From contig OX597822.1 in the NCBI GenBank assembly GCA_951406725.2, positions 26,536,001 to 26,600,000 on the forward strand: 64,000 bases of DNA. Reading direction: 5' to 3'. Source of the DNA: Octopus vulgaris (lineage: Eukaryota). The translations under genes and the position numbers were made by a program. Numbering within the stretch: position 1 is the stretch's first letter; each line of letters starts with the position of its first letter. The notes under the pieces were generated by a model, which was not told where the DNA came from, did no database searches, and saw only the letters and a list, made by a program, of their open reading frames with translations. Positions 6,725 to 49,660 of the stretch are shown here, piece by piece.

Positions 6725-6955
6725 ATAATTATGGTTATATGATTATATGAATATCACTATGGACTCCGTGTGGGCAGTCATCTAAAAGTTTTTGTTCATC
6801 ATGATGCTGACATAAGTTCCTTGTTTTTCCTGATGAGAAGGCGGCATAATGCACCCTTTATTCCTTCGGAATTGAGAATATGCAGTCTTCGAAACATATG
6901 TCGAGAATAAAGGAATTTTGTTAAATCGTCGTTCGACTCCATTCTTTCATTTATA
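6725..6955 (+). mobile_element. Hammerhead-bearing non-coding element (family 1) between (TA)n tracts, Penelope pLTR/retrozyme-like
   Basis: Flanked on both sides by (TA)n and contains the hammerhead at 6825-6907. Confidence 0.7.
6825..6907 (+). ncRNA. Minimal type-I hammerhead ribozyme motif
   Basis: TTTTC-CTGATGA-GAAGGCGGCATA...TATGCAGTCTTC-GAAAC-ATAT-GTC-GAGAA. Stem II pairs 11/12 and stem III is the palindrome ACATATGT. Confidence 0.85.
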
Positions 6956-7063
6956 TATATACATATATATATATATATATATATATATATATATATATAT
7001 ATATATATATATATATATGTATGTATGTATGAATATATATATACCAATCGTACTTTTATATCA

Positions 7064-8566
7064 TACACTAGCGGCGTTGCTCCGGATTAAGTAGCATAAT
7101 TGGTGAGTCGCGAAATCCTCAAATCGTGATATTTCACGGTTCCTCGGTGGTAATTTTTCGCATGCAAATATATGTGGTAGTCGTCTGTTCCATATGGAAG
7201 AAACAATGGATACATCGAGGGATCACGGGATCGATGTAACTCTGCAATTCTCAAACCACCTTGTTTCAACTAAAGAACAATATCCCTGTTTCTGTAGGTT
7301 TATTTGACATTAAAATTGCAGCTTCAGCCCCTGTTGGTGTATTAAAACGCCGAGCATGTTCTCCCTTGAAACGCTTATTTTCCCGAAGTTGATGGTAAAT
7401 TTGACCTTGGATTCTTAAAGATGGATTCTAACCTTGGACAGATGCATCTTTGTGACCAAAACTGGTCATAGCAAACAGAAAGTTTGTACTCCCTGAGCCA
7501 TGACAAAAAGTGTTCGCTGAATTGACTTTCCCCAGTGAACAGTTCTTGAAATAACTGAGGCAGCAGTGGAAATGGATCCAGTGTAACCATTCCATTTCCA
7601 CAAAACATTCCTGGTGATTCTCCAGTAAATTTCTTAGCACCACACTGACAGAGTTTGGTCCTTTCTCCAATTGTAGCCTTGTTACATGGGTCATTTTTGT
7701 CATACAGTAGTGCAGAACCTTTAGCATTTTGAATCTCGCGTTGTCTTAAATTTTTATACCCGTTTCTATCAGCAATCAAACGCTGTTGTCTCTCTTCTTC
7801 AGATTCATTTCTCCTTACAACTGTATGGCGAAATAAATCTTGCTCCTGTCTTTCTTGACGCTCACCGAAGGTTTCATTTGTTTGCCTCTGTCTAGAAAGT
7901 CGTTCGTCCCTTGCACCACATCTTTCAGATTGGCGAGACACTCTTTGACTTTGGTTTTGCCTAGAAAGTCGTTCTTCCCTTGCATCACAACTTTCAGATT
8001 GGCGACGAAGCTTCACCCTTTGTGCATGTGGAATATTTGATCAAGTGGACTTCCTTTTCCGTGGCATAATGGGTGTCTCAAGAAAAATTAAGAAAAAGAA
8101 AATGTTAAAAAAGAAGAGGTGTTCATTAATAACTTTTTTGCTATAACTCTAGTGATGTTTTGTCATAGATAAAATATGTAAATTTGTAGAATTTTTCTAT
8201 AAACGAGAGGTAATTTTGTTGTTTTGCGTTAAATAATAGAAAACCCCCGTGATAATAGAGGTTCAAGTACTAAAGTTATGGGCTTCCAAAATTTGCAATA
8301 CATTAGGATTTCTTAATATTATTGAAATTTGCTGGTATTTTGGAAATAGGCATAATTTCTGTTCATTTACCTACAGTTCAAATTTCATTTAAATCAATTG
8401 GAAAAATTTTTCAGTGGGGAGCATGATCAAAATGAAATATACTTATAAAAGTAACCTGGTTAATGTAGTTTCAGAATATATATGGTTATGAGGGTCTATC
8501 TCTCAAGCCCAAGGAGGAGTTCGATAACAAGCAGACAGACAGAGGTTACAACATTATATGTATAGA
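7064..8566 (-). mobile_element. Internally deleted Helitron/Helentron-type element with the Rep N-terminal region
   Basis: Pseudo-ORF has coiled repeats, CQCGAKKFTGESPGMFCGNG, FAMTSFG, RIQGQIYH and IAELHRSRDPSMYPLFLPYG, typical of the RepHel N-terminus. Ends resemble ACTAGC..CGGCGTTGC and CAGACAGACAGA..TTATATGTATAGA. Confidence 0.82.
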
Positions 8567-8659
8567 CACATGCATACATATACATATATGTATGTATGTA
8601 TGTATGTATGTATGTATGTATGTATGTATGTATGTATGTATGTATGTATATATATATAT

Positions 8660-9006
8660 TATTTCCTCATTCTACATTGAGAGAAGAAAGAGATGGACGC
8701 TTCAATTCTATGCTGCTGCCGCATTATGTCGTACGCGAATGAGAGGATTTGCATCCCCAACCAAGAATTTTTGATGTAACACATGTCCTTGTGGAAGCTG
8801 TTGTGCGCGGCTGAAGAAGGCCACAGACATACATTATGCATTGTTATAAATCTGTCTAATAAAGGCCCGAAACATATGTACCGCTGAATCCTTCGCATCA
8901 TGTTTTTATTTTGATCAATTTACTCCACCACCTACACCACTAAACGGTATACACAGGTGCTTATAATTATCAAGTACTCACCCCGAATTTCTATACTCAA
9001 CTCACC
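8660..9006 (+). mobile_element. Hammerhead-bearing non-coding element (family 2) between TA-type microsatellites
   Basis: Bounded by (TATG)n/(TA)n on the left and (TA)n on the right; contains the hammerhead at 8807-8884. Confidence 0.7.
8807..8884 (+). ncRNA. Minimal type-I hammerhead ribozyme motif
   Basis: GCGG-CTGAAGA-aGGCC-ACAGA...TCTGT...GGCCc-GAAAC-ATAT-GTA-CCGC. Stem I is GCGG/CCGC, stem III is the palindrome ACATATGT, and the first stem II pair is an A.C mismatch. Confidence 0.8.
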
Positions 9007-9939
9007 TATATATATATATATATATATATATATATATATATATATACTCCATACATATATATAATAAACATACATACATACATACATACACAAATGAGAG
9101 AGCAACGTCACGCACAGCATACTATTCAGGTCACCAAGAATAGCACAAACGATTATGTCAAAAGAAATATTACCTATGCATTGCATTTTGCTCTTTCTGT
9201 GGATTTCAAATAAGTCATTGATGCCGGTAAGCAACTACAATGACATCCTTATTTATTCAGTGCATTAATTTGCTTTGTGATCGTTTTGATAACGCGTTAC
9301 TAGGAATATGGGGGAAAAGAGACGTTGTCCTAAAACTTCGTGACAATATGAAGAGGGTGAGTGAGACCGAGATCATATGATCTCTATCTACTCAGTTTTC
9401 GCTTATCTATGTACATGCCAAAATGGGTTTCACTCTGAAATTTCGTTTAGTCAGAGCGTAAACAATTTCCGTCGTGCCCAGATTTTTAATCAGACTATTT
9501 GTATTTCCTATTTTCTAATAATACTCCAGCCACTTGCAACTATGTCATGATTCATTTCATTATTATGCAATTGCCATGTACATCAAAATAAATAGATAAA
9601 TAAGTTAATAAATAAAGATACGTTTTTGACTCATACAGTCATCTGAGAGATAGTACCAACAAAAAAAGTCGACAGAAGAATTAAGCATACTTCAAAACAA
9701 TTTTAATGATATATATGTGTGAATGATCTCAAGATCATTCACACGGGAGAATTTCTGGATGTCAGGTCTTTTTGTAACTGCCATCAAGTAATCCTGCTTG
9801 GAAAGTGGTGAGTAAATAGTTTTCCCCAGGACAGCGTACGGCGTTCTGACAGGAATTACTAGTTAGAGTTCTCCATAAACACCTCATCAAAGTAATACCT
9901 CTCGTAGCGAGGAAGAATATCTTTGATACTGATAGATAT

Positions 9940-47494: not shown

Positions 47495-47884
47495 ACATGT
47501 GGTGTGGTATGGTGGTGTGTGGTGTGGTGGTGTTGGGGTGTGAGGGAGGTAAGAGTGGGGGAAGTAAGGGTGAGGTGTAAGCGATGGGGTGGGATGGGAT
47601 GTATAGGGATGGTGGGGTAACGAGGGAGGTGGTGACGATAAAGGGAGAAGGTGGAAGGGAGAAAGTGGGTAGGAGTGAAGAGGGGAAGTAGGTGTCAGAG
47701 CAAGAGAGGAGAGGTGGATGGGAGGAAGTAGGTGTAAGAGGAAGAGAGGAGAGAGAAGGAGGGTTAGATGGAGAGGGGAGGAGATTTGAGCCCATGTGGT
47801 GCAAAAGTGTGAAGAGAGAAGATCAATCCCTGTTCATGGTGAAGATGGGAGTCCAGATAGCCCCTGTGCAAGGACAATCTCAAC
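47495..47884 (-). mobile_element. Possible Penelope-like GIY-YIG ORF C-terminus plus pyrimidine-rich 3' UTR
   Basis: Minus strand [31 protein letters not shown] resembles the PLE C-terminal R..EQ..IF.L.T..P.GLN motif. Confidence 0.5.
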
Positions 47885-48126
47885 ATATACATGCACATAT
47901 ATAATTATAAATTTACATCTCTTTATATATGTTATGTATGTGTATATATATATATATAAATATATATATATATATAAATATATATATATATATATATATA
48001 TATATATATATATATATATATATATATATATATAATATTAATTCGAGACAAAACCACTATTTTGCAAAACAAACAAGGAAAGACTTAATCAATACATAAA
48101 AATTTTAATATAAAATAAATAAACCG

Positions 48127-48170
48127 CCACTACAATCGTTTCATGTCTTCAAATGACATTCGTCAGGTGG
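48127..48170 (-). ncRNA. Minimal hammerhead ribozyme motif (mirror copy)
   Basis: Exact reverse complement of 48341-48384. Confidence 0.88.
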
Positions 48171-48340
48171 ATTTCCGATCTTCTAATCAGTTTTAATTTA
48201 TTAATTAGCATTGCACAAAAAAATAATAATGACCTGTATATATCAAATTACATACAGGCATATATATATATATACATACATACATACTTGTGTGTGTGTG
48301 TTTGTTTTTGCTAATTAAAACTGATTAGAAGATCGTAAAT

Positions 48341-48384
48341 CCACCTGACGAATGTCATTTGAAGACATGAAACGATTGTAGTGG
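48341..48384 (+). ncRNA. Minimal type-I hammerhead ribozyme motif
   Basis: CCAC-CTGACGA-ATGTC-ATTTGAA-GACAT-GAAAC-GATT-GTA-GTGG; all three stems are Watson-Crick. Confidence 0.88.
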
Positions 48385-49660
48385 CGGTTTATTTATTTTA
48401 TATTAAAATTTTTATGTATTGATTAAGTCTTTCCTTGTTTGTTTTGCAAAATAGTGGTTTTGTCTCAAATTAATATTATATAATATTTTACTATAAAATT
48501 GGATTTAATCCTAAATCTGATTTTTTTCCCTGTAAATTTGGATTTATTCCCTAATATTTATTATCATATATATATATATATATATATATATATATATATA
48601 TGCAAAAACAAACACACACACACACAAGTATGTATGTATGTATATATATATATATATATATGCCTGTATGTAATTTGATGTATACAGGTCATTATTATTT
48701 TTTTGTGCAATGCTAAATTTATATCACAATAGGTCCTCTAAATGTGTTTAGATTAATCTATGGAGAGCAGAAGTGAAAGACGACTTAACATTTTAAAATA
48801 GATTTATTCTCAAATGGTTAATTTTTATCTTGTCTTCTGTCATTGCATACACAGCTTAGATGTGATTCCAGAGTTCTTGAAATGTATCTTGCAGCTGCTT
48901 TTCAATTCTAACTTGAATTATATTAATTATTGTTGCATGCACATCTTCTATAGTTTAGTTGAATACGCGGTAGTCGTTAAATGTCCACCTAAAGTAAAGG
49001 TGAAGCTACTTTTAAATATAATATTTGAATTTTATTATTGCACATTGATTTTATAAAATGATCCTATATATGTATAGATATATCCATGTGTCTGGGTATC
49101 TGTATATCCATGGATATCTTCTATCATTACCGGTTTCATTCATGTAACTGCAGCTATGCTGGGGCACCACCTTGCCTAGTCAAACCCTTCAATTTTTTTA
49201 AAACCTAGTTCTTATTCTATCAATCCCTTTTACTAAACTGCTAGGTTACAGGTAAATCTACTCAAAAGGTTTTGGTTGGCTGAGGCTATAGAAGAAGAGA
49301 CTTTCCCAAGGTTCCACACAGTGGGACTGAACCCAGAATCATGTGGTTGGGAAGTGAGGTTCTTACCACACTGTGACACCTGTGCCTATATGCATGCATA
49401 TGGTTATAATCATCATCATCGTCTTCATCAACATTTAGTGTCTGTTTTCCATACTCTCATGGGTTGGGCAGCTTGGCAGGAATTGGCAAGGCAAGGACCT
49501 TCACTGGGTTCCATAGCCTCTTTTGGCTCAGTTTCTACAGCTGGATGCCCTTCCTAATGACAGCCACTTAACAGAGTGTGCTTTTTATGTGGCACCATCA
49601 CGAGTGCCTTTTATGTGGCACCAGCACCAGTACTTTTTATATAGCATGACCACCACACCT

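Follow-up and report, generated by a model that had tools for sequence, protein, structure and literature searches.

Hammerhead motifs at (TA)n tracts of the Octopus vulgaris genome: truncated Penelope-like elements, intron-less copies and a linker-less lineage

A 64,000-nucleotide stretch of the Octopus vulgaris genome (GenBank assembly GCA_951406725.2, contig OX597822.1, positions 26,536,001 to 26,600,000 of the forward strand; the whole stretch is termed here the window) carries several hammerhead ribozyme motifs, which an earlier note, made from the sequence alone, had assigned to five unrelated, non-coding retroelement families of high copy number, inserted in (TA)n microsatellites, processed by their ribozymes and invisible to annotation of open reading frames (ORFs). 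The locus raises the question of what these elements are and of whether the ribozyme takes part in their mobility. We put at roughly 90% the probability that all five are 5'-truncated 3' ends of Penelope-like elements (PLEs), four of which (families A to D) have parents that encode a reverse transcriptase (RT) and a GIY-YIG endonuclease, while the fifth (E) likely derives from the Hydra clade of PLEs, and that they were likely placed at nicked (TA)n tracts by copying of an RNA in which the hammerhead was uncut. As first framed, the finding is ordinary PLE biology, and the kind is already known: for both the clade and the genus, earlier work has described minimal hammerheads in PLE 3' ends that lie in (TA)n. 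Two variants, a precise loss of an intron in family E and the absence of a protein linker in family A and its sister, bear on open mechanistic questions.

Eight hammerhead motifs in five elements

A relaxed type-I hammerhead descriptor, tuned with prior knowledge of the motifs, returns the eight motifs previously claimed for the window and no others, and 200 dinucleotide shuffles average 0.025 motifs, with never more than 1. The cores start at 6830 (A), 8811 (B), 12718 (C), 15289 (D) and 48345 (E) on the plus strand and at 11814 (C), 14971 (D) and 48166 (E) on the minus strand. The cuts predicted earlier, after 6902 (A), 8880 (B), 12821 (C), 15322 (D) and 48380 (E), coincide with the H17 positions of the plus-strand motifs, and the H17 positions of the minus-strand motifs lie at 11711 (C), 14938 (D) and 48131 (E). 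The eight are not independent, however, since the minus-strand motifs belong to inverted duplicates: C, D and E each comprise one element plus its inverted copy, which leaves five elements. A stricter descriptor recovers five of the eight motifs (mean 0.04 and maximum 1 in 200 shuffles), missing B, the stem II base of which is imperfect, and both copies of C, in which stem I is weak. The CUGANGA, GAAA and UH cores of a type I minimal hammerhead are present together with stems I and II, and the hammerhead fold lies 0.1-4.5 kcal/mol from the minimum free energy. In Rfam, a scan of the whole window yielded nothing at the gathering score, only microsatellite-driven miRNA noise; narrow scans of A, D and E gave a weak Hammerhead_1 match for A (22.7 bits against a cut-off of 34) and no match for D and E.

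Family A occupies 6752..6952 on the plus strand, as a truncated Hydra-derived PLE 3' end (pseudo-long terminal repeat, pLTR) that is 96.6% identical to the 3' end of a coding copy in locus L201 (loci fetched from the genome carry the prefix L) and is flanked by (TA)n at 6699-6727 and 6952-7018; its hammerhead (6825..6907, plus strand) has a 54-nt stem II arm and an 8-nt palindrome. Family B, a truncated Hydra-clade 3' end at 8661..9006 on the plus strand, is 99.1% identical to both pLTRs of the full-length unit in L140, with (TATG)n/(TA)n on its left and (TA)n at 9007-9046 on its right, and its hammerhead spans 8807..8884 (plus strand). Family C forms a near-perfect palindrome centered at 12266/12267. 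Its right arm (12267..13026, plus strand), a truncated Hydra-clade 3' end that is 99.4% identical to the full-length unit in L111, bears an 85-nt stem II arm and adjoins (TA)n at 13027-13078, and its left arm (11334..12266, minus strand), an inverted copy with a tail of about 170 nt, matches the upstream pLTR of L111 and its tail at 99.0% identity and adjoins (TA)n at 11283-11336. The arms of D and E are likewise head-to-head pairs. The left arm of D (14762..15156, minus strand) is a truncated 3' end of Neptune/Nematis type with its tail, 92.8-93.7% identical to coding copies in L121 and L124, and the right arm (15155..15449, plus strand) is an inverted copy with internal duplications that adjoins (TA)n at 15446-15481. 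In E, the left arm (48036..48198, minus strand) lacks an intron, with its exon junction at 48180/48179, and adjoins (TA)n at 47924-48038, and the right arm (48313..48556, plus strand) consists of 19 nt of exon 1 joined at 48331/48332 to exon 2, followed by the pLTR end and tail and by (TA)n at 48554-48601. The spacer between both arms (48205..48311, minus strand) is an inverted copy, 92% identical, of host DNA to the right of the insertion (about 48602-48716), which suggests that a jump to target DNA took place as the element integrated.

Copies of every element are numerous, as had been proposed, with 2,128 (A), 2,169 (B), 1,452 (C), 2,658 (D) and 1,322 (E) first-look candidates, which are not copy numbers; the 40 scored per family are mostly 90-100% identical. 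The stem III octamer of A, B and C is perfectly palindromic and that of E pairs through G-U, but in D it is not palindromic, so that the proposed dimer type applies to four families and not to the fifth; the predicted duplex amounts to -5.8 to -11.1 kcal/mol in the former and to +1.4 kcal/mol in D. The octamers of A (6894-6901) and B (8872-8879) are identical, and cross-family heterodimers would therefore be possible in principle. Across families the octamers differ yet stay self-complementary, in a scan that required such pairing, and this suggests that the dimer form of the hammerhead may be under selection. Seven E-group sequences analyzed with RNAalifold presented no two-sided change, within-family covariation being absent from that set. 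Further hammerhead families with other self-complementary octamers were seen in L052, L115, L167, L168 and L196.

The motifs are PLE-type minimal hammerheads, as anticipated. The metazoan PLE minimal hammerheads of PMC4209133 share with the present ones an unpaired base before stem II, a palindromic stem III and a high diversity within one genome, but the stem II arms are far longer in three of our families (51-85 nt in A, B and C). The same work attributes single motifs and close opposite-strand pairs to truncated PLEs and reports low activity of dimers.

Coding parents and classification

The window pieces of A to D match the 3' ends of coding parents at 93-99% identity. For C, L111 and L112 each hold a frameshifted 5.6-kb unit of the order pLTR-RT-GIY-YIG-pLTR; for B, the unit in L140 measures 4.8 kb and has a single stop. 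A is represented by RT plus endonuclease in L199-L202, and D by pieces of the endonuclease and of the RT in L122 and L124. Direct pLTR pairs, spaced 4.8-5.6 kb apart, were found for B and C. As in other endonuclease-bearing PLEs, the parents of A to D have a single ORF with RT and C-terminal GIY-YIG domains, intact in a sister family of A (L121), and pLTR tandems, 5' inversions, tails and a hammerhead within the pLTR are all present. The linkage to RT and GIY-YIG ORFs that had been suggested as a check thus exists for A to D; 'non-coding' holds for the truncated window copies but not for the longer genomic ones, and the system is not invisible to ORF annotation. In the same way, the families are unrelated in that their DNA ends in the window have no common sequence, but A, B and C have parents whose RTs share 44-46% identity.

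The Hydra clade, as defined in section 11 of PMC8557442, is characterized by an RWK-like motif, DKT, a GIY-YIG domain with CxxC and CxH in place of CCHH, and a CxCX5C linker. B, C and the sister in L121 carry IRW, YRDD, an RWK-like motif and DKT instead of DKG, and in the endonucleases of A, B, C and L121, which lack CCHH, the conserved E and N are flanked by CxxC and CxH. The linker precedes GIY-YIG in C (L111) and in B (L118; one Cys is changed in L140). B and C thus carry the motifs of the Hydra clade, and on its definition the label 'Nematis', given at first to A-C, was dropped. In a quick RT tree with a midpoint root, A, B, C and L121 fall in one group of 12 rows with other octopod RTs (SH-aLRT 99), among rows that lack named Hydra, Neptune, Nematis and Poseidon references. 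Family D shares with Neptune and Nematis a linker, here CX4CxxC (L122/L087 translation), that fits their CX2-5CxxC pattern, a CCHH-type GIY-YIG after the RT and a minimal hammerhead with a 6-bp stem II, but its (TA)n bias is weaker. Its Pfam matches are weak (GIY-YIG, E 6e-4, below the cut-off; RVT_1, E 0.003). By eye, the short spacer after CxxC comes closer to that of the Nematis rows in the PMC8557442 alignment, and comparison with the Hydra definition and with that alignment led us to drop the initial label 'Neptune'; D is of Neptune/Nematis type. For E only RT pieces were recovered, namely an ORF start with RIKWKA in L271 and a DKT-bearing piece in L312, and on this basis E likely derives from a Hydra-type PLE.

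An AlphaFold model of the 899-aa ORF of the sister family (mean pLDDT 80.8) has telomerases as its six top PDB matches (E 2e-9 to 6e-7), in keeping, as far as a predicted structure allows, with a PLE RT closest to telomerase RT; a sequence search of PDB returned nothing relevant. Asn-rich low-complexity inserts, disordered in the model, separate RT and endonuclease in L111, L121, L140 and L201 and recall those reported for rotifer Penelope (PMC3846280). Over 38% of the query, the RT of family C shares 99% identity with a protein of Octopus sinensis named 'GATA zinc finger domain-containing protein 14-like', and linker-less ORF pieces appear in databases as 'dyrk1' or 'DDB_G0288805-like'. Misnamed octopus PLE ORF pieces occur in both NCBI and UniRef (P0001, P0120, P0121 and P0122 in our numbering). 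The practical implication is that PLE ORFs are misnamed in protein databases and that the hammerheads fall below the Rfam cut-off.

Two candidates for the E parent were rejected. One, found by protein search, turned out to be another Hydra family (L203-L232), with a 727-aa ORF, a CxCX5C linker and, in each pLTR, a hammerhead of its own; 63/63 of its scored matches are free of stops. The other (L196-L197, G000:C28:5976500-5994000) is really a segmental duplication in tandem, of some 7.1 kb, within a cluster of C2H2 zinc-finger genes, and each of its units holds a hammerhead palindrome and a LINE fragment.

The elements are not uncatalogued as a kind. In the Hydra clade, according to PMC8557442, hammerheads are easily detected and nearly every family inserts into (TA)n, and its supplement enters Hydra-1_Obim, from Octopus bimaculoides, with both (TA)n and a hammerhead, which differs from all five reported here when compared by eye. 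The elements described here share with that clade the order RT then GIY-YIG, the 3' hammerhead, (TA)n, tails and tandem and inverted copies. They differ from it in having units of 3.6-5.6 kb rather than under 3 kb, Asn-rich inserts and long 3' untranslated regions, in the absence of CxCX5C from A and its sister, and in the 1.27-kb intron of E, lost from most sampled copies. In the literature searched, no paper on Hydra elements beyond PMC8557442 was found. PMC13282606 puts the recently active Penelope-like families of O. vulgaris at 31, and its main text contains neither 'ribozyme' nor 'Hydra'. No description of the five families, of the spliced copies or of the linker-less lineage seems to exist within the searchable literature, although the repeat library of PMC13282606 may already include the families.

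Intron loss in family E and the uncut ribozyme

An unbiased pattern, placed 3' of the 5' end of the short form of E, gives 929 exact matches to the E group in the genome. The 100 at the head of the list comprise 29 inverted pairs (58 matches) and 42 singles, and we fetched 39 of the singles and the widest pair. E had first seemed to be a non-autonomous element without a parent, about 250 nt long and with a sharp 5' end, because the initial search pattern selected the short form; this notion was dropped when the unbiased pattern revealed long forms. Two 5' forms meet exon 2 at one shared base, nine bases before stem I, and two of four long copies followed upstream contain the 5' piece of the short form with a canonical donor after it. 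They thus define a GT-AG intron just before the ribozyme, of 1,272 and 1,283 nt in the two natural copies, with a pyrimidine-rich AG acceptor at the join. Among 41 arms sampled, 27 lack precisely this intron, 11 contain it and three are uninformative; both arms in the window lack it. Four E subfamilies that differ in stem II each contain spliced and unspliced forms, 13 of the 25 spliced arms classed by subfamily have an inverted piece upstream, and ten copies retain 17-32 nt of exon 1, as expected if the RT ran to the start of the transcript. No such GT-AG jump was found in the loci examined for A, B, C, D and two further families.

Introns retained in genomic copies are regarded as a PLE hallmark of unknown meaning (PMC2377424, PMC8557442), typical though not universal, and E departs from it. 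The pLTR of Drosophila virilis Penelope (PMC2377424, PMC4209133) also has a spliceosomal intron soon after the transcription start, the 3' end of which adjoins hammerhead stem I, but that intron is 75 bp long and retained, whereas the 1.27-kb intron of E is precisely missing from most sampled copies. To explain both intron retention and head-to-head inversions, PMC3846280 proposed an antisense template and called for experiments. Spliced copies with head-to-head inversions require a sense, spliced RNA at some step, and those of E argue against that explanation, as judged from the genomic copies; their large number, precisely spliced and folding back, provides a natural test against the proposal. 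No paper on spliced genomic PLE copies was found in the literature searched, most subscription journals being outside its coverage.

The same junction could be read without any splicing, if the intron-less form went back to one old DNA deletion, or to an RT jump at the AG microhomology, that was later amplified in the manner of a SINE, in which case it would be uninformative about the template strand. Exon 1 and the intron both end in AG, the donor comes from only two loci, and template jumps are frequent in these insertions, as in a chimera at L271 and the E spacer. However, a canonical donor and a pyrimidine-rich AG acceptor lie exactly at the junction, the occurrence of both forms in four subfamilies would demand repeated events or later recombination, and the retained exon 1 clusters at 17-32 nt, much like a transcript start. 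We hence hold such a deletion unlikely, and E was likely copied for the most part from spliced RNA.

What part the hammerhead plays is a separate matter. The window copies run 50-374 nt beyond the predicted cut and none of them starts or ends at H17, so that the copied RNA was uncut at that site, and the claim that the elements are 'ribozyme-processed' is unsupported. In the anole PLE of PMC11167929, catalytic mutants of the hammerhead leave insertion in vitro unaffected, no reads end at the cut site, and the RT starts internally at two sites, which explains the tail. Inverted pairs have their motifs on opposite strands, which makes an active dimer in cis impossible, and only full-length or tandem units were seen to hold same-strand pairs able to dimerize. 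The hammerheads are expected to cleave solely in dimeric form, by way of the 8-nt palindrome, the dimer being formed either by the two same-strand pLTRs of a tandem transcript or by two RNAs, and the single and inverted copies in the window would consequently be dead ends. A 2017 study is said to have dealt with the dimer cleavage of PLE hammerheads. The ribozyme would thus likely serve to process tandem precursors, without being required for insertion.

These data also bear on whether the elements might be retrozymes, that is, non-autonomous, non-coding units cut by their hammerhead, circularized and re-inserted by a borrowed RT. Non-LTR retrozymes (bioRxiv 10.64898/2026.07.22.740005; PMC7229834) are likewise short and non-coding, have type I hammerheads and are akin to PLEs, the preprint of 2026 deriving them from PLE pLTRs, and the minimal motifs with a palindromic stem III, the short, non-coding nature of most sampled copies and the sharp 5' end of the E form, about 250 nt long, would fit them well. 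They are, however, arrays of tandem monomers, whereas the window holds single insertions, truncated or derived from the leader, with head-to-head inversions; no tandem, head-to-tail, non-coding monomers each with a hammerhead were found in the window, and coding parents were. The 5' ends of A to D vary and run into RT and GIY-YIG, which largely refutes a retrozyme origin for them, the sharp 5' end of E matches exon 1 of an intron-bearing parent, and no window copy begins or ends at the cut. We consider a retrozyme origin highly improbable, and truncated PLE ends account better for these insertions.

Insertion at (TA)n and a linker-less lineage

All five window elements contact (TA)n, as the earlier note had stated, the left tract of D being short and degenerate. 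When an end is scored as positive if (TA)4 or more lies within 14 nt, and with four overlapping loci omitted for A-C, insertion ends meet (TA)n in 44/54 cases for A, 26/31 for B, 25/26 for C, 37/40 for E and 16/40 for D; by the same criterion, random positions score 7.1% across the loci and 3.2% across the window. A second count gave 32/40 for E and was biased low for D, its reference ending about 14 nt short. The bias, and with it the proposed enrichment of copies at (TA)n, is strong in A, B, C and E and moderate in D. For A, 29 of 54 3' ends lie directly at (TA)n, 17 run into the tail and eight do otherwise, and 12 of 14 complete tails then reach (TA)n.

The tracts need not have been chosen as targets if they were instead added by a telomerase-related RT or grew after insertion. 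The RT is indeed telomerase-like, the element ends are TA-rich and (TA)n is common, with 45 tracts in the 64 kb of the window. Nevertheless, (TA)n borders both sides of nine of 15 non-inverted A insertions, which favors entry into pre-existing tracts, both of the alternative 3' ends, the short end and the tail end, meet (TA)n, and Helitron and Tc1 pieces occupy the same tracts. Tract addition or growth seems to us quite unlikely, and insertion into existing tracts is preferred. In the mechanism we propose, the element's endonuclease would nick the (TA)n tract, target-primed reverse transcription would begin at the pLTR end or at the tail site, and the RT would stop early, with fold-back or a template switch making the inversions; in E, the template would be the spliced sense leader, copied to near its 5' end.

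The second variant concerns the linker, which PMC8557442 ties, as a hypothesis, to microsatellite targeting, and which is present in all nine Hydra rows of its alignment that were inspected. In A, CxCX5C is absent from every copy, among 25 loci, whose frame reaches that region, and it is equally absent from the sister of A, both in L121 and in a tandem array elsewhere; A and its sister are therefore filed as a Hydra-derived variant and not as strict members. By contrast, 69/69 endonuclease-bearing database homologues have a CxC...C linker in an alignment count; with the query and two fragments devoid of endonuclease still included, it stood at 69/72. A homologue search with the linker-less endonuclease region gave none at E <= 0.001 among 227 candidates, and in a representative search, with 12 of the 150 listed proteins inspected, linker-less look-alikes occurred among the top matches, two from O. 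sinensis and four others. The sister family has an intact 899-aa ORF in L121, and 40/40 of its top scored matches are 100% identical over 331 nt; it is very young. Its 3' ends lie at (TA)n in 36/36 fetched cases, or 20/36 with an anchor that proved too strict. At L269 and L270 (G000:C1:119514154-119529000), four linker-less units of 3,624 bp stand in tandem, two of them with 899-aa ORFs, and the same-strand hammerheads of this array, 3.6 kb apart, may constitute a natural dimer substrate.

A and its sister might still owe their (TA)n sites to a linker-bearing Hydra protein acting in trans. Linker-bearing families with intact ORFs exist in the genome (63/63 scored matches stop-free), and A and B, one lacking and one having the linker, share the same stem III palindrome. 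Against this, the sister maintains intact 899-aa ORFs and a four-unit tandem array, with all of its 40 top matches identical, and its endonuclease, which retains the R, E and N positions, is under purifying selection when compared with A (endonuclease dN 0.30, dS saturated; RT dN 0.16, dS 2.5). Mobilization in trans is thus doubtful, and a linker-less protein that itself reaches (TA)n is preferred.

With moderate confidence we propose that octopus Hydra-type PLEs copy spliced sense leader RNA with an uncut hammerhead and fold back, and that a currently spreading lineage without the linker still hits (TA)n each time. Several observations weigh against the overall reading of the five elements given here, the spliced leader of E included. 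The intron donor was seen only in two loci that belong to sister subfamilies and not to that of the window, and, since the junction shares a 2-nt AG, a deletion in DNA would yield identical letters. No intact full-length E parent was found, a pattern for continuity between tail and ORF gave 0 matches, and the tie of E to Hydra consists of the ORF start in L271 and the RT piece in L312 only. Pfam found no RT or GIY-YIG in any of the six Hydra-type ORF pieces searched. Stem I of C is weak (pair probabilities about 0.25), D has no stem III palindrome and only a moderate (TA)n bias, and the copies of A-D sampled were top BLAST hits, which over-represents young copies. If the proposal on spliced leaders and linker-less targeting is true, intron retention would not be built into the PLE mechanism and the antisense-template model would fail for these elements, intron-bearing copies would persist only because spliced ones are dead ends, and (TA)n targeting would reside elsewhere in the protein or in the RNA, and not in the linker zinc finger. 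The intact, young linker-less family offers a ready protein with which to test the linker-targeting idea of PMC8557442.

Other remnants lie beside these elements. Between (TA)n tracts next to A and B, a Helitron-like fragment at 7043-8550, without Pfam support, presumably resembles a Helitron Rep N-terminus, and a second one next to D, also between (TA)n tracts (15482-16153), matches the Pif1 2B domain (E 4e-13). The (TA)n tract to the right of C holds a decayed element classed by eye as Tc1/mariner-like (13081-14232), with related copies in L025 and L083. Finally, two further (TA)n-adjacent segments may be decayed PLE ends: 16195-16300, on the minus strand, with a half resembling GAAA plus palindrome, and 16760-16960, also on the minus strand, with a CUGAUGA core that has no matching GAAA and with relatives in three loci.

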